The notes beneath the pieces were generated by a model that was given only the letters and a program-made list of their open reading frames with translations, did no database searches and was not told where the DNA came from. This document shows, one piece after another, positions 5,003 to 55,300 of a DNA stretch of 64,000 nt. Origin of the DNA: Octopus vulgaris (taxonomy: Eukaryota); the NCBI GenBank assembly GCA_951406725.2, contig OX597833.1:31620001-31684000 (forward strand), written 5' to 3'. Within the stretch, counting starts at the first letter, position 1. Each line of letters begins with the position of its first letter. The translations under genes were made by a program, and so were the position numbers.

Positions 5003-5517
5003 AAATCAAATCAAATCAAATCAAAACAAATCAAAATAGATGAACATCAATGGAATTTGTATCTTTGTGGTACCAGTGCCGGTGGCACACAAGAAAATCA
5101 TCCGAACGTGGCCGTAGCCAGTACCGCATAGACTGGCCTCCGTGCTTTGGGGACGTAACAAACACCATCCGATCGTGGCCGTCCGCCAGCCTCATCTGGC
5201 ACCTGTGTCGGTGGCACATAAAAACACCATCCGAGCGTGGCCGTCTGCCAGCCTCGTCTGGCACCTGTGTCGGTGGCACATAAAAACACCATCCGAGCGT
5301 GGCCGTTCGCCAGCCTCGTCTGGCACCTGTGTCGGTGGCACATAAAATCACCCACTACACTCTCGGAGTGGTTGGCGTTAGGAAGGGCATCCAGCTGTAG
5401 AAACACTGCCAGATCTGACTGGCCTGGTGCAGCCTTCGGGCTCCCCAGACCCCAGTTGAACCGTCCAACCCATGCTAGCATGGAAAGCGGACGTTAAACG
5501 ATGATGATGATGATGAT
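5003..5517 (+). mobile_element. RTE 3'-UTR/tail fragment with ~5 repeat units
   Basis: (CAAAT)n spacer, 60-bp units, common tail and (GAT)n. Confidence 0.85.
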
Positions 5518-5540
5518 ATATATATATATACATATATACA

Positions 5541-5862: not shown

Positions 5863-6839
5863 AATAGTTAAGAAGTACATATTTCAAACCTGGAAAATTT
5901 TTCAAATTTACCGACAAATTTTTGTTAACGACGGTCGCCTTGAGCATACAAATAAATTCTTTAAATCTTTTATCCACGCAAAATAATAACAAATCTTCTG
6001 ATAAATAATATCTGTTATAATTGTGCGGTGGTGGTGGGAGATAATAATTCACCTTTCTGAAAGACCTGTGGTGGGAATATTTAAACTTTTGTGGCTGTCA
6101 TGTTTCGTCTATATAGATACAAACAGAAATACATTGAGAGACGCGTTGGAGAAGAAAGAGAGACGGCGGAGGTGTCAAACGTCGTTATATAGAGAGAAAT
6201 GGAGGGAAGGGGGAAAAGAGAGAGATTGGGGAAGAAAAGGTGATATATGAAAGAGAGGACTGAAAAATGAAATATTTTGAAACCTAAAGATGATTTGTTT
6301 TAAGAGAAAGATTCTCATGATTGTGTGGTGGTGGTGGTGGTGGTGGTGGCAATGATAATTCTCTCTATGAATGCAGACAGACGTAGAGAGAGAGAGAGAG
6401 AGAGAGTGACAGCGCTGGTGAAGGCGGCGGAGGAAAGATAGTAGACGCTATCAAGCGACATTATAGAGAGAATGTGAAAGGGAGGAAAGAGAGAGATGGA
6501 GGAAGACAGGCAGATAACAGAAGCGATGGCGGCAGGGGAAAGATAATAGACGCTGTGAAACGACGTTATAGAGAGGTGAAAGGAAGGGAGGAAAGAGAGA
6601 GAGATGGAGAAAGACAGACACATAAAAGAATGAGAGTAGACTTATCAAAGTGTGCTTTTTTGGCCCTAGCAATGATACCTTTTAAGATGGGGACTTCTAA
6701 CCTAGCCCACTTGCATCCTCACCTCATTTTACATGTCCCTGTCAATTTTGGAGTCAATCCAACAGGATCTAGTGGCCTTTAACCCGTTCTCAATGCCAAA
6801 ATCAGACAAACAAACTTTTGGCATTTCAGAATTATAATA

Positions 6840-7059
6840 TTTCCCTTCTTTCTCTCTCTGTCTCCCTCTTTTACGCTGTCTGCCATCCCCCCTCTTCCTT
6901 TGCTAAGAGCATTTTTAAGCCAGTGTCAGGCCGAAGAACGAAATGTTCCCAAGATAAGAGAGTCTTTCTAATCTAATGTTGTGGTTGAGCTGTTATTATT
7001 TATTTATTATTATTACTATTAGTGTTGTCCCTTTGATCCTCGGTCGAAAATTTGCTTAT

Positions 7060-7091
<32 letters not shown>

Positions 7092-7428
7092 CTATTTTCA
7101 GCTTCGCCTCGTATTGCATATTATTTCTCCATACAGGAGTTTTTTTTTTTTTTTTTTTTTTCAATGGCGGCCCATTTCCGCGGGGTTCCGCTATTTCCCT
7201 TCTTTCTCTCTCTGTCTCTCTCTTTTACGCTGTCTGCCATCCCCCCTCTTCCTTTGCTAAGAGCATTTTTAAGCCAGCCCGTCATATTCCCGTGTCAGGC
7301 CGAAGAACGAAATGTTCCCAAGATAAGAGAGTCTTTCTAATCTAATGTTGTGGTTGAGCTGTTATTATTTATTTATTATTATTACTATTAGTGTTGTCCC
7401 TTTGATCCACGGTCGAAAATTTGCTTAT

Positions 7429-7460
<32 letters not shown>

Positions 7461-7506
7461 CTATTTTCAGCTTCGCCTCGTATTGCATATTATTTCTCCA
7501 TACAGG

Positions 7507-7537
<31 letters not shown>

Positions 7538-7804
7538 CAATGGCGGCCCATTTCCGCGGGGTTCCGCTATTTCCCTTCTTTCTCTCTCTGTCTCCCTCTT
7601 TTACGCTGTCTGCCATCCCCCCTCTTCCTTTGCTAAGAGCATTTTTAAGCCAGCCCGTCATATTCCCGTGTCAGGCCGAAGAACGAAATGTTCCCAAGAT
7701 AAGAGAGTCTTTCTAATCTAATGTTGTGGTTGAGCTGTTATTATTTATTTATTATTATTACTATTAGTGTTGTCCCTTTGATCCTCGGTCGAAAATTTGC
7801 TTAT

Positions 7805-7836
<32 letters not shown>

Positions 7837-8021: not shown

Positions 8022-8280
8022 TCCCGGTGCACCCGCCCTTTCCCACCCCCACCACCAATACCGGATATCTCTATATTTTTGCTCCATCTATACCGGATGT
8101 CGCTTCTCCCACCACCATTATAGGTGTCTACTCTTCGAACCCCCCTCTTCAATACGCTATTTCACCATGCATTACCCCTCTCTTGATATCCTACGTTCTA
8201 CTTGCCTAGAACCTGTCATCATTTCTCTGAACCACCCCTCCCCACTGGTGCTCCCCTATATTTCTGCCCCCCCCCCCCCC

Positions 8281-8512
8281 CATAAAAAGCACCATCCGGA
8301 CGTGGCCGATGCCAGACCCCTCTGGCACCTGTGCAGGTGGCACGTAAAAAACACCCACTACACTCGCGGAGTGGTTGGCGTTAGGAAGGGCATCCAGCTG
8401 TAGAAACACTGCCAGACTAGACTGGAGCCTGGGGCAGTCCCTAGCTCCCCAGACCCCGGTCGAAACCGTCCAACCCGTGCTAGCGCGGAAAACGGACGTT
8501 AAACGACGATGA

Positions 8513-8515
<3 letters not shown>
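8281..8515 (+). mobile_element. RTE 3'-tail fragment
   Basis: Same tail motif and (GAT)n end. Confidence 0.85.
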
Positions 8516-8549
<34 letters not shown>

Positions 8550-8689: not shown

Positions 8690-10902
8690 AACAACCCTCT
8701 TCTTTTCAGGCGCTGAATTGCACCCCTCCTCCCCACATCTTCCCAGTTTTCAGAGTTGGCACTGTCAATGTTGGTACACTGAAAGGTAGGTCTAGTGAGA
8801 TTATAGAGATGCTTGAAAGAAGACAGGTTGATGTATGCTGCATACAAGAGAGGTGCGTCAGCTAGGGTCCTCACAGGCAAGGCACATAGGTATAAAGTCT
8901 TCTGGCAAGGTAACATGGATGGGGTAGGGGGTGTAGGCATTCTCCTTGCAGAGAAATGGGTGGATAAAGTCATAGAGGTTGTCAGGGTTTGCGACAGAGT
9001 GCTTAAGCTCAGGTTAGTCCTACAGAGTGGCACAGCTACGATTATCTCCGCCTATGCCCCACATGCGGGGCTACCAAATGATCAGAAGGACCACTTTTAT
9101 GATACCCTTCTACAGGCTACCTCATCTTTGTGGGTAGAGACTTTAATGGGCATGTTGGGCGGGAATCGGGTATCTTCACTGGGGTACACAGTGGCCATGG
9201 TATTGGCACCAGAAATGATGAGGGAACTAGACTACTGGAATTCTGTGATGCATGTAACCTTTTAATCTGCAACAATAACTTCAGGAAACCTGACTGCCAC
9301 CTTATAACCTATCAGTCAGGAGACTCCGCTAGCCAAATAGACTTCATCCTCACCAGACAGCAGGATGCAGGGTCGCTCTTAAATACAAAGACCCTCCCGG
9401 GTGAAGAGTGTATCCCTCAGCATAGGCTAATCATTAGTGACTTTAGGCTTGAGGCCAGAAGGACTCCAAGAAACAGACCAATCCAGAAAAGAAGGATTTG
9501 GAAGCTAAAGAACCCTTCACATGGTCAGAGATTTAGGGACATCCTCATCAAGAAATTTGATGAGAGGGAAGAGGAGCTACAGACGTCGGACATAGAAGGT
9601 AGCTGGAAATTCCTACGGGACAGCTTGCTGAGTGCCACAGACCAAGTCTGTGGATGGTGCAAAGTCCCTTCCAGACCTAGAGTTATGTGGTGGTGGAATA
9701 GTGCAGTAGACAAAGCCATTAGTGCAAAGAAACAGGCCTGGAGAGCCTGGAGGGATGAGGGTAGCAGGGAACTGTACCAAGTAGCCAAAAGGGAGGCCGG
9801 GCGGCAGGTATACATAGCCAAAGATGTAGCAGAAAAGAAGAAGTTTGCCAATGCAAGGGGAGAAACTAGAAGTAGTTGATAGTTTCCGCTACCTGGGTGA
9901 CCAAGTTAGTAGTGGAGGTGGATGCTCAGAGAGTGTCACCACTAGAATACGAATAGCCTGGGCAAAGTTTAGAAAGCTCCTACCCCTACTGACGACAAAG
10001 GGTCTCTCACTCAGAGTGAAAGGTAGATTATATGATGCATGTGTGCGAACTGCCATGCTTCACGGCAGTGAAACATGGGTCGTGACTGCAGGGGACATGC
10101 GTAGACTTGAAAGAAATGAAGCTAGCATGATCCGCTGGATGTGTAATGTCAGTGTGAATGCACGACAGAGTGTAAGCACCCTGAGAGAAATGCTAGACAT
10201 AAAGAGCATCAGATGCGGTGTGCAAGAGCGACGCTTGCGATGGTATGGTCATGTACTGCGGATGGATGAGGAGAGATGTGTGAAGTGCCACTCCCAAACA
10301 GTTGAAGGAATCAGGGGGAGAGGTAGACCCAGGAAGACATGGGATGAGGTAGTCAAGCATGATGTCAGAGCGTTGGGCCTCACTGAGGCAATGGCGAAGG
10401 ACCGAGATCTCTGGAGATGTGCTGTGACTACAAAGACCTGGGCTGCTTCCGGCACCAGTTCCGCATAGCCCTTGCCCATTCAAAGTACCTTGGATCCCGG
10501 AACATCTCGCTGTGCTTGAGGAGACCTGTTGAGTCAAGTGCATGTACATGAACATCGAAACAAATATCAATGGAAATAGTAGTTGTGATACCTGTGCCGG
10601 TGGCACATAAAAAACACCATCCGAACGTGGCTGATGCCAGCTGGCTGGCTTCCGTGCCGGTGGCACGTTAAAAGCACCAACCGATCATGGCCGATGCCAG
10701 ACTCCCCCTGGCACCTGTGCAGGTGGCACGTAAAAAGCACCCACTACACTCGCGGAGTGGTTGGCGTTAGGAAGGGCATCCAACTGTAGAAACACTGCCA
10801 GATCAGACTGGAGCCTGGTGCAGCCCTGGCTTCCCAGACCGCGGTCGAACCGTCCAACCCGTGCTAGCGCGGAAAACGGACGTTAAAAGATGATGATGAT
10901 GA
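8690..10902 (+). mobile_element. RTE LINE with AP endonuclease and C-terminus but reverse transcriptase deleted
   Basis: [45 protein letters not shown]; jumps from KKKFAN to QGEKLEVVDSFRYLG at ~9852; tail with (GAT)n. Confidence 0.9.
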
Positions 10903-11143
10903 TATACACATATATACATACATATACACATGTATACATATATATATATATATATATATATAGAAAGAGAGAGAGAGAGAGTGGTTATATACTGTCAACA
11001 TAATGTGACAGTCCCATAAAGGGAATTACACCATCGCTATTTAGCCCTAGGAAGCATCGACGCTTCCCGTTGGCTTTGATGCATTTCCTGTGTCCTCATA
11101 TTTGCGAAGGGGAGGCACGCATCCGCACCAGCTAGGGCTAGCA

Positions 11144-11191
11144 CCTACAGACATGCATGTTTCTGAGTACATTGCTTGTCATCAGTCTAGG
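11144..11191 (-). ncRNA. Type I hammerhead ribozyme, copy 1 (one stem I mismatch)
   Basis: Minus: CCTAGA-CTGATGA-caagcaatgtactca-GAAA-CATGCATG-TC/TGTAGG; GUC triplet at 11152-11150. Confidence 0.75.
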
Positions 11192-11210
11192 GTAGCCAGT
11201 CCTGCTAGTT

Positions 11211-12869
11211 AAAATCTTTATTATAGGCCCGAATGAAGAGGGGACATAACAATACAATACAGGAATGGGGTACATATAACAAAAATACAGAAAGGAAGAT
11301 ATGAAATGAAATATTGATAATGAATTAACAGAAATGGCTTACGAGCCCCCCAAAGCTCAAAGTTTCATTTACAATTACAGTTGTACTATCTGGGGTGTTC
11401 GTCAGTAATGTAAACGAGTAATTCATCCTGTTCTATAACGCTGGGCAAACTGTCATATCGAACGTAGTGTGCTATGCACACAGCTTTTTTTTAAAACAAA
11501 TTTATTATTTTATTTACCGTCTCTTCATCCACAATTGCAGCCTTTATTTGGTTATCGTATATCCTCCGATTCAATTTCACTCGCGTTAGATTTTTCATTA
11601 TCGTTAATTTTTTCTCAATTTCTTTACCTTTTGTGTACAATATTACAGCTTTGAGATTTCTTCCTTTTGGTCTTCCTCCTTCCTTGCATACTTTCAGACA
11701 TTCTTCCACTTTTGTTGACCATTTTTCCCATTCTTCCCACCTTGAACCTCCACTCACTTTAGTTGCTGCATCTCTCCCTTCGTGTGTTCGATCCTCTGTC
11801 TCGTCAGCATGCTTCTTTTTAGTTTTTTTCTTTTTTTGGTCTTTGGGTGGTGATTCCACCTGTGTTCGCTTTCTATCCTCTTTTTCTTTAGTTCTTTCCT
11901 TTTCTTTCTCCTTCACTAACTCGTCCACATTATCTGTTGTCACGATTTCCTCTTCCGCTTGCAATTCCACATTCTCCTTTTCTAACTCCTCTGTCAAAGC
12001 CTCCATTCCTTCCTCCAGTGTTATCGTCTTCTCTTGTATTTTTCTTTGAGGACACACATCCTTCATGTGCCCTCTGCTCTTACATTTATAACACACTGGA
12101 GGTCTCTCCTCCACCACGACTCTCAGTCATGTCTCGTCGGGGAACATCAACTCCTCTGGGATGTTATACAAATCTGGCATGGCTATGTGGACTGAAGCTT
12201 GCACTGCATAACCTCACCAGTTTATTTCATTCGACTTTTCCACCTTAAGTATGTCCACGCTCTCTTTGCAGTTGTAGATTATTGCAGCTACTATTCTTTC
12301 GGTATCAAGTTCTGGTGGGATTTTGCTTATTCGTATCCTCACTGCTCTTTTTCCACAATAACTAGGAAGTAAAACCCATTTTTCCAATCTCAACACTGTC
12401 GTTGCATTTCTCTTCACTTTGTCTTCATTTTCAAAACGAACGTCTGCCGTAGCGTATTTTCTACCTCTATTGTAGAAGGTAGTTCTTCCTTTAATTTCCT
12501 GTAGACATTTCTCAATCTCTTCCACCACTGCTACTTCTATTCTCTTTGAGACCACATTCCATGTTCTGTATGTTATGATTTTTTTCTCCGCTTCTTTCAC
12601 TTCGTCTTCAGGTGGTGTAACCCTCAGACAGTCTCCTTCCTTCTTGAAGCTGTCGTAGTATTTCCTCAAATTTTCCTTCTCGACACTTATTTCTTCCAAC
12701 TGTAATTCGTTCGCAGCCAGGCCTTTGCCTGCTGCTCCCGCATAAGTTTGGGCTTGCATACCCAACAAAGAATCCAACAATTCAACACGACGCAACAGCT
12801 CTCAACAACAACAACCAACAAATCCAACTCACAACTGCAAAATTGAAAAACCGACACAAACACTTCCAA
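11211..12869 (-). mobile_element. ORF1-only (HAL1/Tx1-like) non-autonomous retroelement with 19-bp TSD
   Basis: TSD GTAGC(C/G)AGTCCTGCTAGTT at 11192-11210 and 12870-12888; AATAAA near 3' end; no RT ORF. Confidence 0.75.
11491..12759 (-). pseudogene. ORF1p/gag-like nucleic-acid-binding protein (~422 codons) with CCHC knuckle and two in-frame TGA stops
   Basis: ORFs 12214-12795 and 11491-12117 share one frame; linker reads INW*GYAVQASVHIAMPDLYNIPEELMFPDET*LRVVVEERPPVCYKCKSRGHMKDVC; VRIRISKIPPE resembles Tx1/L1 ORF1 RRM. Confidence 0.75.
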
Positions 12870-13025
12870 GTAGCGAGTCCTGCTAGTTGAGATACTTGAC
12901 AAGCCTTCGCAAAATATATATTTACAGTGAAATCTATTCACTGGTCACCGTAATTAGAAATATTGAATTTCTAAATGTCTCAGAGAGACATGAGCGGTGG
13001 TGGAGTGATAGAGTGGTTGTATACC

Positions 13026-13259
13026 TATTTCTTTACTACCCACAAGGGGCTAAACACAGAGGGGACAAACAAGGACAAACAAATGGATTTAGTTGATTAC
13101 ATCGACCCCAGTGCATAACTGGTACTTAATTTATCGACCCCGAAAGGATGAAAGGCAAAGTCGACCTCGGCAGAATTTGAACTCAGAACGTAATAGTAGA
13201 CGAAATACGGCTACACATTTCGCCCGGTGTGCTAACGTTTCTGCCAGTTCGCCACCTTA
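13026..13259 (-). mobile_element. tRNA-derived SINE with 14-bp TSD AGTGGTTGTATACC
   Basis: Minus GGCGAACTGGCAGAAACGTTAGCAC head, B-box-like GAGTTCAAATTC, CATCCTTTCGGGGTCGATAAATTAAGTACC core; TSD at 13012-13025 and 13260-13273. Confidence 0.9.
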
Positions 13260-13260
13260 A

Positions 13261-13540
13261 GTGGTTGTATACCGTCAACATAATGTGACAGTCCCGTAAA
13301 GGGAATTACACCACTGCTATTTAGCCCTAGGAAGCATCGATGCTTCCTGTCAGCTTTGACACATTTCCTGTGTCCTTATATTTGCGAAGGGGAGGCAAGC
13401 ATCCCCACCAGCTAGGGCTAGCACCTAGAGACATGCATGTTTCTGAGTACATTGGTCGTCATCAGTCTAGGGTAGCCAGTCCTGCTAGTTGAGATACTTG
13501 CCAAGTCTTCGCAAAATATATATTTACAGAATTTCTAAAT
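13261..13540 (-). repeat. Hammerhead-bearing structured repeat, copy 2
   Basis: Direct repeat of copy 1; its uninterrupted CCTGCTAGTT-GAGATACTTG shows the empty insertion site. Confidence 0.85.
13424..13471 (-). ncRNA. Type I hammerhead ribozyme, copy 2 (perfect 6-bp stem I, palindromic stem III)
   Basis: Minus: CCTAGA-CTGATGA-cgaccaatgtactca-GAAA-CATGCATG-TC/TCTAGG. Confidence 0.8.
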
Positions 13541-13551
13541 GTGTGTGTGTG

Positions 13552-16728: not shown

Positions 16729-17413
16729 GACTGTACGATATATGTGTGCGAACAGCCATGCTACATGGCAGTGAAACATGGACCATGACTGTTGAGGACA
16801 TACATAGGCTTGAAAGAAATGAAGCTAGTATGATCTGGATGTGTAATGTCAGTGTGCACACACAATAGAATAAGTGCCCTGAGAGAAAAGTTGGACATAA
16901 GAAGCATCAGCTGTGGTGTACAAGAGAGATGACTGTGCTGGTATGGTCATGTGCTGCATATGAATGAGGAGAGCTGTGTGAAGAAGTGTTACACCCTAAC
17001 ATTGGAAGGAACCAGTGGAAGAGGGAGACCCAGGAAGACATGGGATGAGGTGGTGAACAAAAATCTAAATCAAAAGCAAATCAAGATCAAAATCAAAATG
17101 GAAATTGTAGTCGTGGCCGATGCCAGTTCCTCTTGACTGGCACCCATGCTGGTGACACATAATATGCATCATTCAAATGTAGGTCGACGCCAGTGCCTCC
17201 TAACTGGCTCCCTGTGCCGGTGGCACGTAAAAAGCACCATCCGAACGTGGTCGATGCTAGTGCCGCCTAACTGGCTCCCGTGCTGGTGGCATGTAAAAAG
17301 CACCCACTACACTCTCGGAGTGGTTGGTGTTAGGAAGGGTATCCAGCTGTAGAAAACCTGCCAGATCAGATTAGAGCCTGGCGCAGTCTACAGGCTTGCC
17401 AGTTCCTCGTCAA

Positions 17414-19896: not shown

Positions 19897-22415
19897 GGCG
19901 ATCTTTCGTCTCTAGTAGACCTTTCCGTCGATTTCCGTAAAAAACTTTTATTTTTTTACATATGGGCTTGCGGGAACTTTTGAAGTAATGAGAGCGAAAG
20001 AGACTAAGAGAAAGCGATTTTATGACGAGGGAAGTTCTTTTGAAGTTACCGTGCATGGGACGCATTGATGTACATGTGTGTGTGTGTGTGTTTGATGGGG
20101 TGTGGGAGACAGAAAGTATGTTGTGTAAGTGAAGTGCTTCTGTTAGTGTGTGTGAAGAGACAGAGAGAGTAATGTGTGAAAGAGAGAGATAACTGAAATT
20201 TTTTACTCGGTGTATATGTATATGTATGTATGCATGTATGTGTGTGTGTGTATGTATCTATGTATGTGTGTGTGTGTATGTATCTATGTATGTGTGTGTG
20301 CGTATGTATGTGTGTGTGTACTTATGTGTGTGTGTGTGTATGTATGTATGGCCGATTCAGTGTTTACATTATTTCGAGTTAAAACGAAAGATTACCTTTG
20401 CCTGTTTATGTAACGGTCTGCTATGTAGAAAATAATGAGGTTGACTCAATGGAATAATGACAGTGATCAAAGATATAGACAAAATTTTTTTATTTAATCG
20501 TTATACATGCCTTGTCGACTGCTACTGTGCAGCCTTAATGTCTCTGTTGATGTGACGATGGTGAAATGGTAAGAAAAAGACGGGAGAGTTATAAAATGAG
20601 GAGGAGATATTCTTCTCATGAGAAAAGAGTTGCATGCAAAGGAAAAGGTTTTGAGCAAAAGGCTTCGTTTCACGTTACTACGATCGACACAGTTTTAAAT
20701 GGGCAACCCCACCCGTCTAGCCTCAGGGTGGCATCACTCAGAATCTACAACAATGCGAGGAAGCGCATTGTGACCAGCGATATGTAGCAACATCCGACAG
20801 TCTAGTCGGTACAGTGATTTGTGTTGTTTTGAGACAAAGGGACAGTTCCGAAATGCCAAATTCCTCTTCTCCCCATGGCACACGAACTCATCCAAACTTA
20901 AGAATCAACATGGTTTTGCTAAGTCAATTGATGTGTTTTCCGTTTGACTTAAAACTTTTCCGCATCTACACAGACACCACACGAAAACAATAGGTGTCAC
21001 AGTGATATACCTCTTTTTCTACAGTCGGCCGAAATGAAGTGACAATGCCACATTCACATTCTCTATTGTCAGCATCGAGCATCGACAATTGGTGACAGAC
21101 CGACGTTATTAGAATACATCAACCACAACGATACAACAGGTTACCCACAACGTGATTCGAACACAACAACCCTGCCACAATTGCTGACCCCCGAGCCACA
21201 GAACTGCAGTTTTCGTTACTTTATCCATTACATTTGGTGAGCTCGACTTCAAAGACTTACTGCTTTAGCATCGCATGAACTCTTGCAAACAATTACAGTC
21301 CGTGCCAGTCGCATCAACAAGAATTATAGGACACAAACTTTCACGACACATAGTTTTCAGTTCCATCGTCACATGCCCAACACAACACGAAAGGAATGAA
21401 GTCACTGACTCAATGGACACACACCAATTATATTCCACATGTACTGCAACCCGATGCACAGATCCACGAGGGAAACAGTTGCCATACATAAATGCAACAC
21501 TTAGGACAGCTACCCAACCAAGAGAACTAACCTTTTCTCACATTACCAATCGGATTTTGTCACTTTTCGATACACATTTTGTACTGTTCGTTCCTTTTGC
21601 TGCACAACACAATGTTTACACATGCATATATATGCATGCTTGCACCCAGTTTCTGTGCACATCTATAGACTATTAACTTTTTTTTTCCTTTGCATGCAAC
21701 TCTTTTCTCATGAGAATATCTCCTCCTCATTTTATAACTCTCCCGTCTTTTTCTTACCATTTCACCATCGTCACATCAACAGAGACATTAAGGCTGCACA
21801 GTAACAGTCGACAAGGCATGTATAACGATTAAATAAAAAAAAATTTTGTCTATATCTTTGATCACTGTCATTATTCCATTGAGTCAACCTCATTATTTTC
21901 TACATAGCAGACCGTTACATAAACAGGCAAAGGTAATCTTTCGTTTTAACTCGAAATAATGTAAACACTGAATCGGCCATACATACATACATACACACAC
22001 ACACACATACATACACACACACACATACATACACACACACACATACATAGATACATACACACACACACACACATACATGCATACATACATATACACATAC
22101 ACCGAGTAAAAAATTTCAGTTATCTCTCTCTTTCACACATTACTCTCTCTGTCTCTTAACACACACTAACAGAAGCACTTCACTTACACAACATACTGTC
22201 TGTCTCCCACACCCCATCAAACACACACACACACACATGTACATCAATGCGTCCCATGCACGGTAACTTCAAAAGAACTTCCCTCATCATAAAATCGCTT
22301 TCTCTTAGTCTCTTTCGCTCTCATTACTTCAAAAGTTCCCGCAAGCTCATATGTAAAAAAATAAAAGTTTTTTACGGAAATCGACGGAAAGGTCTACTAG
22401 AGACAAAAGATTGCC
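19897..22415. mobile_element. Foldback DNA transposon with ~740-bp inverted arms and ~1-kb unique loop
   Basis: 19897-20646 is the reverse complement of ~21683-22415; termini GGCGATCTTTCG / CAAAAGATTGCC. Confidence 0.9.
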
Positions 22416-52304: not shown

Positions 52305-55300
52305 CTTCATCGTTTAGCATCCGCTTTCCATGCTAGCATGGGTTGGACGGTTCAACTGGGGCCTGGGAAGCCAGAAGGCTGCACCAGGCCCAATCTGATC
52401 TGGCAATGTTTCTACGGCTGGATGCCCTTCCTAACACCAACCACTCTGTGAGTGTAGTGCGTGCTTTTTACGTCCCACTGGCACAGGTACCAGACAAGGC
52501 TGGCAAACGGCCATGATCAGATGGTGCTTTTTACATGCCACCGGCACGGAGGCCAGGCGTGGCTAGCAACGGCCACAATTGGATGGTGCTTTTTATGTGC
52601 CACCGGCATAGAGGACAGTCAGGGTGGCGCTGGCAACGGCCATGTTCGGATGGTTCTCTTATGTGCCACCGGCACTGGTATCACAGCTACAATTTCCATT
52701 GATGTTGATCGATTTTGATTTTGATTTTCACTTGCCTCAACAGTTCTTCACAAGTAGAGTTTTGTGTCCCAAAAAGGAAAGGTATGCATAAGTGGACTGG
52801 CTACATCCCAGGTAGAGGCCACAGATTATGGTCTCACTTGTCCTGCCGGGTCTTCTCATGTACAGCATACTTCCAAAGGTCTTGGTCTGTAGTCATTTCC
52901 TCGGTGAAACCTAAAGTTCGAAGGTCATGCTTCACCACCACGTCCCAGGTTTTCCTGGGTCTACCTCTTCCACAGGTTCCCTCAACCGCTAGGGTGTGGC
53001 ACTTTTTCACACAACTATCTTCATCCATTCTCGCCACATGACCATACCAGCGCAAACGTCTCTCTTGCATACCACAACTGATGTTTCTTAGGTCCAACTT
53101 TTCTCTCAGGGTACTTACACTCTGTCGAGTATGAACACTGACGTTACACATCCATCGGAGCATACTGGCTTCATTTCTTGCGAGCTTACGCATGTCCTCA
53201 GCAGTCACGGCCCATGTTTCACTGCCATGTAGCATGGCTGTTCGTACACATGCGTCATACAGTCTGCCTTTTACTCTGAGCAAGAGGCCTTTTGTCACCA
53301 GCAGAGGTAAGAGCTCTCTGAACTTTGCCCAGGCTATTCTTACTCTAGCAGTTACACTTTCAACACACTCGCCCCCACCACTGACTTGGTCACCTAGATA
53401 ACGGAAGCTATCAACTATTTCTAGTTTTTCTCCCTGGAATGTGGCGGAAGTTGGTCTCTTTGCATTTTCAGTGTTTATTGCTCCTGAGCATCTGCCACAT
53501 ACAAAAACCATCTTCCTAGTTAGCCTTCCTTTGACTTTGCTGCACCTCTTATGTGTCCATAGCTTACACTTGGTGCATCTTATAGAGTTTCTACCTATGC
53601 CTTTTCTACAGATCGAGCAGGGCCATCTACCTGAAGGCGTTTGTGACTTGTCTACCTTCCTACTTATTAGGACTTTGGTTTTAGCTAGGTTTTACTCTAA
53701 GGCCCTTTGATTCTAATCCTTGCTTCCACACCTGAAACTTCTCCTCCAGTTCTGATAGTAACTCAGCAATTAAAGCAAGGTCATCAGTGTAGAGGAGCTC
53801 CCAGGGGCATCTTGTCTTGAATTCCTCCGTTATTGCCTGGAGGACTATGATAAATAGGAGGGGGCTGATGACTGAACCTTGGTGGACTCCTACCTCTACC
53901 CAGAATTCTTCACTGTACTTGTTGCCAACCTTCACCTTACTAGCGGCGTCCCTGTACATGGCTCGCACAACTCTCACTAACCATTCATCTATCCCTAGTT
54001 TCCTCATTGACCACCAGATAAGTGATCGGGGGACCCTGTCGAAGGCTTTCTCCATGTCAACGAAAGCCAGGTACAGGGGCTTATCTTTGGCTAGGTATTT
54101 CTCCTGCAGCTGTCTTACCAAGAATATGGCATCAGTGGTACTTTTCCCTGGCACGAACCCAAACTGCATCTCAACTAAACTAACTCTCTCTAATTAGTTG
54201 GGCTATGACCCTCTCCGTAACCTTCATTACCTGATCCCACAGCTTGATACCTCTAATTATTTGTATCTAGGGCGTCACTTTTACCTTTGTAGCAGTTGAC
54301 TATTATGCTGCTACACCAGTCATTGGGTATGACTCCTTCGATATCACCTGGTTAACTATAGCCGACACTACCAGATATTTTGAGCATCTCTGCAGTTATT
54401 CCTGATGGGCCTGGGGCTTTCCCTGTCTTCATGCTTCTAATTGCCTTAACTACCAAGGAACTGTCAGCTCGGATAGCTGGTCCCTCTGTTTGGTCGACAT
54501 TCAGCAGACTCTCTTTATCCCATTCATTTTCCTTATTCAGCAACCTTTCATAGTGGCATCTCCAAACCTCTCTCTTTGCATCCTCATTTAGCGCAAGTGA
54601 ACCATCATCCATGCGAACACATTTCTCTCCTACTACATCACGATTCTCTCTCACACAGTCTTGCAACACGAAATACCTCAAGTCTTTGGTCCTCACGGCA
54701 CAGAACATTGGCAAATTTCTTCTTATCTGCTTCCCTTCTGGCTAGCTGTCTCCCAGCTTCTCTTTTGGCAGTCTGATACAATTCCCTGCTACCACCATTC
54801 TTCCAGTCCTTCCAAGCCTGTCTCTTTTCTCTAATAGCCCTGTCTACAACATTGTTCCACCACCACGTTATTTTAGGTCGAGAGGGGACTTTGCACCAAC
54901 CACAGATCTGGTCAGTGGCTCTCAGCAGGTTGTCCCTTAGAGACCTCCAGTTGTCTTCTACCCCATGTGAAGCTATATCCCCTTCTACTTCGTCAAAAGC
55001 TTCAAGTAATATGTCCCTAAATCTCTGTCCATTCGCAGGATCTTTAAGCTTCCAGATCCTACTTCTCCATGTTGGTCATCCTCTTAGTCCTGATCCTAAA
55101 GTCACTAACTACCAGTCTATGTTGTGGGGTACATTCTTCGCCTGGGAAGGTTTTGGCATTTATAAGCAGCCATCTTTCCCTTTTCCTGGCAAGGATGTAG
55201 TCAATTTGGCTAGTATGGCAGCCCGATTGGTAGGTGACTAGGTGGCTGGTAGGTTTCCTGAAGTTAGTGTTGCAAACCATAAGATCATTTGCATCGCAGA

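Follow-up and report, generated by a model that had tools for sequence, protein, structure and literature searches.

A broken ORF1-only LINE derivative within a hammerhead retrozyme dimer of Octopus vulgaris, and the probable insertion of its family at Pol II start sites

The hammerhead-flanked unit described here lies in a 64,000-nucleotide stretch of the Octopus vulgaris genome (contig OX597833.1, positions 31,620,001 to 31,684,000; the window) and is composed of two elements, namely a broken ORF1-only LINE derivative, which is HAL1-like and belongs to the L1/Tx1 group, and a retrozyme dimer within which it is nested. The nesting of this LINE family in hammerhead repeats is targeted and far from chance. 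The explanation we prefer, and which we consider probable, is that Pol II start sites are the insertion targets of an L1/Tx1-type family, which uses target-primed reverse transcription and would likely borrow the promoter located upstream. The features of the unit are compiled in Table 1.

Table 1. Features of the composite unit, in window coordinates and in the order of the minus strand
Feature	Position	Strand	Remarks
Retrozyme monomer 1, promoter side via hammerhead to SINE insertion point	13260..13542	-	5'-truncated start adjoining (TA)n/(CA)n run
TATA-like box, monomer 1	13512..13526	-	about 30 nt upstream of extended helix I base; putative promoter
Extended helix I, upstream hammerhead	about 13490-13407	-	from folding
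Upstream type I hammerhead	13424..13471	-	predicted cleavage 13430/13429; stem II mismatch at 13455
SINE in monomer 1	13026..13259	-	14-bp duplication 13273-13260 and 13025-13012
Monomer 1 remainder and monomer 2 promoter side	12889..13011	-	two fixed 3' termini at about 13012 and 12953
TATA-like box, likely borrowed promoter	12912..12924	-	24-36 nt upstream of 5' target-site duplication
5' target-site duplication	12870..12888	-	13 bp exact, or 19 bp allowing one mismatch; identical with 5' arm of extended helix I
ORF1-only LINE derivative	11211..12869	-	1659 nt; 110-nt leader; poly(A)-signal-like 3' end without poly(A) tail
ORF1	11392..12759	-	predicted tandem RRM-like domains and CCHC knuckle; stops at 12213, 12129, 11493
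CCHC zinc knuckle	12049..12090	-	zf-CCHC match, E 6e-4, just under cut-off
3' target-site duplication, monomer 2 resumes	11192..11210	-	match to 5' duplication
Downstream type I hammerhead	11144..11191	-	predicted cleavage 11150/11149; mismatches in stem II (11177) and stem I (11148)
Monomer 2 after insertion	10980..11210	-	ends at first fixed 3' terminus, in (CT)n(TA)n run

The two minus-strand type I hammerhead motifs of the original prediction are present on either side of the CCHC ORF, with cleavage sites 2280 nt apart; their cores begin at 13465 and 11185, with 13430 and 11150 as the last positions of the GUC triplets. The 231-nt repeats bearing them are 92.6% identical between the two copies of the window. 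Neither hammerhead was scored by Rfam, at the gathering threshold or at E<=5. The fold is supported by family variation, since the 3-8 core pair, which was left unfiltered, is kept as C-G in 94 and as U-A in 26 of 125 motifs from the fetched loci and is mismatched in 5; this set was filtered for pairing of stems I and II, and some of its members are chance matches. Extended helix I folds in both hammerhead regions (z -2.8 and -2.9). Relative to their closest relatives the window hammerheads are damaged, with one or two stem mismatches per copy. The SINE and its duplication account for 248 nt, so that the 2.28-kb unit shrinks to 2032 nt without them, as had been anticipated, and no RT is found inside it. 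Elsewhere in the repeats of the genome, hammerhead variants occur that include a U3-A8 core pair, a U4C core and long stem II forms (loci L129, L167, L216-L225; L028, L136; L096, L236, L238, L242); Rfam gave no match in L236, L238 and L242, and nothing in seven short target loci.

The reading frame of the window copy contains three stops, the one at 11493 being premature as well, where two had been counted originally, and intact relatives encode 433-463 amino acids instead of the ~422 expected. The genome search with 11211-12869 that had been proposed returned 48 matches, many of them full length at 80-92% (40 scored of 269 candidates); with an intact copy as query, 98 matches were obtained, about 35 of which, as counted from the table of matches, are near full length and without stops. 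Downstream of the ORF, 15 loci read and 20 mapped show a short UTR and no ORF2. For the N-terminal part of ORF1, the pairs that allow an estimate yield dN/dS values of 0.08-0.22, apart from one close pair with 0.51, and saturation affects several pairs; by this measure, ORF1 evolves under purifying selection. Most copies stop a few bases past a poly(A)-signal-like motif and lack a poly(A) tail. Mammalian L1 has such a tail; the tail-less end presumably fits a Tx1-type end. A protein search with ORF1 found one relative, a CCHC protein of Octopus bimaculoides (52%). The structure model is of low confidence (mean pLDDT 51), and both its weak tandem-RRM matches (best E 7e-4) and the Atlas matches to ZCCHC3-type RBD/CCHC clusters (scores 0.88-0.92) are to be taken as leads only.

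Two-ORF elements reached via a zf-RVT search (L211, L212) contain the domains Exo_endo_phos, RVT_1 and zf-RVT, and the best solved relative of their ORF2 is human L1 ORF2 (E 5e-66). Their ORF1 is homologous to that of the ORF1-only families (28-35%, E 1e-30 to 1e-45; window ORF1 versus L211 ORF1, 27%, E 4e-22); they have the same kind of 3' end, and they likewise occupy hammerhead repeats. The 3' tail of L211 is also similar to that of the window SINE. With an APE, an RT and a C-terminal zinc domain, and with L1 as its closest relative, the partner ORF2 places the family in the L1/Tx1 group. The family prefers multicopy sequence as target, which is a trait of the Tx1 clade; judged from these features, membership in this clade is likely, a named Tx1 reference being absent from the partner matches. 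Since its sole ORF is homologous to the ORF1 of the autonomous two-ORF partners, and an ORF2 is lacking, the ORF1-only element fits the definition of HAL1 (half-L1), a non-autonomous element with ORF1p as sole product that is described from mammals in the accessible text of PMC5753468. Target-site duplications, 5' truncation and a fixed 3' end are further marks in common with HAL1-type target-primed reverse transcription. The octopus family differs from HAL1 in the missing poly(A) tail, in its strong site preference and in its nesting in hammerhead repeats. Two other assignments of the ORF were rejected: it is not the gag of an LTR or DIRS element, given that there is no LTR and no recombinase and that ORF1 matches LINE ORF1, and it is not the upstream CCHC ORF of a Chlamys-2-like Penelope-like element (PLE), given its own duplications and its LINE partners.

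The host repeat is a high-copy, short non-coding tandem monomer of 354 nt with one type I hammerhead (2642 first-look candidates, 40 of them scored). It is classed here as a non-LTR retrozyme, in keeping with the ~350-nt tandem monomers with type I hammerheads, described as non-coding in the portion of PMC7229834 available, of molluscs and other metazoans; some copies in the octopus differ in that they harbour an ORF1 element or an entire LINE. In all 28 non-window repeat loci fetched, an ORF element is absent within 1.5 kb of the repeat. Copies are partial tandems, 5'-truncated, often with an inverted 5' copy, and they stop at two fixed 3' termini ~60 nt apart, often in (TA)n. The 5' truncation, the inverted 5' copy, the two 3' termini and the AT-rich sites agree with non-autonomous PLEs, for which 5' truncation, inverted copies, an optional tail and (TA)n sites are reported (PMC8557442; marks also in PMC11167929, both in the sections available), although the tail in these papers measures 30-40 bp. 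A PLE origin of retrozymes has been proposed in a 2026 preprint (bioRxiv 10.64898/2026.07.22.740005), the accessible text of which makes no mention of a promoter or an ORF. Judged from its sequence alone, the host repeat would be a Penelope-type retrozyme with a Penelope-like RT as its motor. PLE-like RT fragments are present in the fetched loci, none of them joined to the repeat, and no autonomous Penelope element was found linked to it in these loci. Several such fragments, with what we take to be a Penelope RT motif, lie near ORF1 elements (L122:4541-9637, L137:5229-5954, L062, L124, L165), none being joined to the window repeat.

Some minor observations concern the same repeats. In the same retrozyme family, the SINEs of the window and of L009 have both inserted close to the first fixed terminus, one in each orientation, in a sample that is biased toward the host repeat. 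The upstream monomer of the window opens with ~12 nt from near the distal terminus of the repeat (13531-13542), to which the promoter side is attached with a loss of about 37 nt. At 6771-7815, the window contains a ~370-nt unit three times, two of the units being 99% alike, in which a scan found no hammerhead core.

Evidence for targeting comes from 58 distinct 3' junctions with at least 80% identity to the window element, taken from top-scoring loci that are not all independent and do not cover the whole genome. From 43 of these the sequence enters a hammerhead repeat directly, from 3 it runs into another copy, and the remaining 12 are unassigned, although 4 of these open, as judged by eye, with a retrozyme-type duplication. 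The chance nested insertion that the original prediction had named as its refuting case is contradicted by these numbers, though some copies do lie in unrelated flanks. The hammerhead targets are several unrelated repeat families, junction offsets differ, and the target type switches repeatedly along the element tree (66 rows). Target-site duplications of 13-21 bp are found at many junctions, including those of 5'-truncated copies, one of which (L043) has its own duplication at the same repeat site, while two others (L032, L047) lie in unrelated DNA; the element thus also inserts, with duplications, at sites without a hammerhead. Repeated insertion builds arrays, one of them of 13 copies. It is because of the unrelated target families, the differing offsets, the target switching, the duplication of L043 and the arrays that the nesting is regarded as targeted. 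That one or a few chance insertions were merely amplified by hitch-hiking, with no target preference, would account for dispersed loci with common junctions (L015/L016, L002/L004, L216-L225), but is already largely refuted by the same features, by tandem re-insertion at one site and by the U1 site described below, and has hardly any probability left. The 13-copy array (G000:C2:138770720-138793276; L193-L201, L210), apparently derived from repeated insertion at one site, is made up of a young ORF1-only sister family with ORFs 95-96% alike. Five loci of a two-ORF family share one 17-bp duplication, which is compatible with independent insertion as well as with unit copying.

The upstream monomer of the window is 93.0-94.4% identical to empty copies and 92.6% to its own downstream monomer, and the window element has no close sister in the element tree. 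Because the flanks are similar to empty copies within their subfamily and a close sister is missing, the window copy would most likely represent an independent insertion into a pre-existing dimer, which was later struck by the SINE and decayed, and is now dead.

No sequence common to the target sites was found; what they appear to have in common is position. In the retrozyme, each monomer has a TATA-like box some 30 nt upstream of the base of extended helix I, which may be the promoter that marks the start site. Of 21 target clusters, 16 have a TATA-like motif whose start lies 20-45 nt upstream of the duplication, compared with 1 of 12 SINE sites (Fisher p 2e-4; the 12 were taken from 32 SINE copies, as those with a usable duplication), with a mean of 6.0 and a maximum of 12 in 2000 shuffled controls. 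Six other intervals contain the motif in 2-11 of 20 or 21 clusters. When the seven hammerhead clusters are left out, the box is retained in 9 of 14 (shuffle p 0.004). These values are to be read with the definition of the test: the interval of -45 to -20 was picked after the sites had been seen, and the motif allows up to one mismatch in AT-rich DNA, the match being exact in 5 of the 21 clusters. The clusters derive from 55 sites, 14 of which were anchored by hand, with tandem copies, weak duplications and L010 omitted. Five of the 21 have no TATA-like box, and spacing between box and duplication ranges from 20 to 43 nt. Copies L002, L004 and L022 have short 5' tags taken from retrozyme targets, all starting close to one and the same point. 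It is on the grounds of position and tags that the boxes are put forward as putative promoters.

A U1 gene provides an anchor for this position that does not depend on the boxes. On G000:C18 at 49.049-49.052 Mb (L273, L268), a 5'-truncated two-ORF element has U1 upstream sequence on one side and, on the other, an intact U1 that begins at +1. This element is 92.6% identical to a family occupying a retrozyme site (L212, L216-L225). The insertion is a single event, without a duplication and with ~10 nt deleted upstream. In L010, the 5' tag corresponds to the first ~22 nt of U1; Rfam gave no U1 match on the 22-nt tag alone. At L244 (G000:C4:15761720-15762080), the 5' end of a LINE consists of several stacked short tags, one of them U1-like, which could possibly be a record of successive donor start sites.

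In hammerhead repeats the duplication is at the same time the 5' arm of extended helix I, a long hairpin, so that structure and start site coincide. Targeting might then depend on DNA structure or on RNA pairing, either through a nick at the base of the extended helix I hairpin or through annealing of target bases contained in read-through RNA. Since the 3' end is a poly(A)-signal-like motif without a tail, transcripts of the element would run on into the target, and a co-transcribed target can strengthen targeting (Kojima, PMC4494074, in the part accessible); L032 and L047, moreover, open with a few bases that match retrozyme targets. This alternative is nevertheless judged unlikely, considering that the U1 insertion is at +1, that the TATA-like box is found in most of the non-hammerhead clusters, that the targets are without a common sequence, and that SINEs with similar tails do not follow the pattern.

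Insertion at start sites, as the preferred explanation, would proceed as follows. The hammerhead repeat multiplies in the form of partial tandems that are 5'-truncated and often inverted, presumably driven by a Penelope-like RT, and the TATA-like box of each monomer would set a start site near the base of extended helix I. The two-ORF APE-RT elements would supply the RT for the ORF1-only element. The first nick would fall close to +1 and the second 13-21 nt further on, in line with the observed duplications. The element would then end up immediately downstream of the start site, and new copies would keep a short stretch of the donor target at their 5' end, as is observed in the tags. Repeated insertions at such a site yield the tandem arrays seen. 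By analogy to TRE5-A, ORF1p would dock on the initiation complex and thus plausibly mediate start-site insertion. Eventually, read-through RNA including the downstream repeat would be copied by the repeat's own machinery; the products are found in the genome, the enzyme being the putative Penelope-like RT.

Such products bear on the idea of a protein-coding retrozyme, one part of which stood. Intact ORFs do occur beside or between hammerhead repeats (L025, L028). In 7 of 8 hand-picked loci the sequence begins inside the ORF element, without an upstream repeat, and stops at one of the two termini of the repeat; these seven have no duplication at the ends of the ORF element itself, and L034 and L039 also carry inverted 5' copies. 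Because they are truncated inside the ORF element and yet end at the fixed termini of the repeat, these composites appear to have been copied as units via the Penelope-type route of the repeat, which indicates that the "coding retrozyme" is a hitch-hiking product. Contrary to what had been suggested, the ribozymes do not set the ends of the element: these are defined by its own target-site duplication, its start lying 312 nt past the upstream cleavage site when the SINE is discounted, and its end 61 nt short of the downstream site.

In its full form, a protein-coding retrozyme would require that a ~2.0-kb RNA is freed by two hammerhead cuts, circularised and reverse-transcribed, which we hold to be improbable. 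Metazoan retrozymes do form circles (PMC7229834, as far as its accessible text goes), and the composites with intact ORFs are in keeping with such a route. A circle predicts that the tail of the ORF element precedes the upstream hammerhead. Among nine loci with an intact upstream hammerhead, this tail is missing in five, the window included, where promoter-side or microsatellite sequence is found instead. In the four others, two tails belong to a different or separately inserted copy and two to one ~4-kb composite tandem (L121/L122), which is 96% identical between its units and compatible with circle-derived copying. The window copy, having promoter-side sequence of the repeat in place of an ORF tail before its upstream hammerhead, was not made from a 2-kb circle; both its ribozymes carry mismatches, and uncleaved RNA was the main substrate of a Penelope RT in vitro (PMC11167929, same sections). 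Composite 5' ends were not seen to accumulate at the cleavage site, in a comparison limited by microsatellite noise. Contigs from four presumed-RNA runs cover parts of the ORF and repeat of L136, an intact composite; by their nature, contigs cannot show ends, strand or level, and they count on neither side. Taken at the level of sequence, the 2-kb circle is unsupported. A wider version of the preferred explanation would combine several of these features: Pol II start sites would be found by position through contact of ORF1p with the initiation complex, the element having no promoter of its own, and retrozyme hosts would be made protein-coding, up to a whole LINE, and propagated by a second, Penelope-type RT, possibly via a ~2-kb circular RNA, with one element thus served by two reverse transcriptases and two sets of ends. 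As a whole, this version is possible but rather doubtful.

Target choice of APE-type LINEs is usually attributed to an endonuclease reading one sequence. Within the Tx1 clade, APE-RT LINEs are found in multicopy targets, such as Tx1 in Tx1D, Keno in U2 and Tx1-Mar with SINEU, and SINEU shows recurrent U1/U2 5' additions, possibly due to transcription from the flanking target (PMC4494074, same part). The octopus family is likewise of the APE-RT type and inserts in transposons and in an snRNA gene. The known families, as covered there, are tied to one sequence in an endonuclease-determined manner, whereas here a single lineage enters sequences unrelated to one another at a position they have in common, close to putative start sites, its chief target being a ribozyme retroelement by which the guest is copied anew. 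The closest parallel for position is TRE5-A of Dictyostelium, a position-specific non-LTR element whose ORF1p binds TFIIIB subunits in vitro and whose ORF1-only derivative, TRE5-A.2, is mobilised in trans (PMC3159450, in the text accessible). Both systems combine position-specific insertion with an ORF1-only derivative; TRE5-A, however, inserts ~50 bp upstream of Pol III genes and has its own promoter, while the octopus family is found at or just after +1 of Pol II-type starts, with a promoter that is apparently borrowed.

If this explanation is true, a lineage landing at one position in unrelated sequences would be the Pol II counterpart of TRE5-A, and there would be a reason for the retention of ORF1 in ORF1-only elements. 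Since the insertions appear to mark them, the promoter and start site of an animal retrozyme become directly testable; retrozymes are seen to carry coding cargo, and the LINE could serve as a start-site-directed insertion tool. No description of LINEs targeted to hammerhead repeats or start sites was found in the literature listings consulted; Repbase may already list these families. The accessible part of PMC5786205 contains nothing on such LINE-retrozyme nesting, and in that of PMC13282606, which covers Octopus vulgaris repeats including 13 recently active L1-Tx1 families, the word ribozyme is absent.

Three other features of the window were recorded. A LINE-RT-like fragment at 9851-10468 (plus strand), with an 81% inverted relative at 53006-53441, adjoins the downstream flank and is unrelated to the unit. 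A 438-nt inverted repeat, 95% complementary, is located at 19897-20334 and 21978-22415, the copies being 1643 nt apart, and may represent the termini of a DNA transposon. Finally, a dispersed repeat with internal tandem units of 61-62 bp is found at 278-1371, 1955-2227, 5073-5534, 8267-8539, 10591-10923 and 17143-17413.
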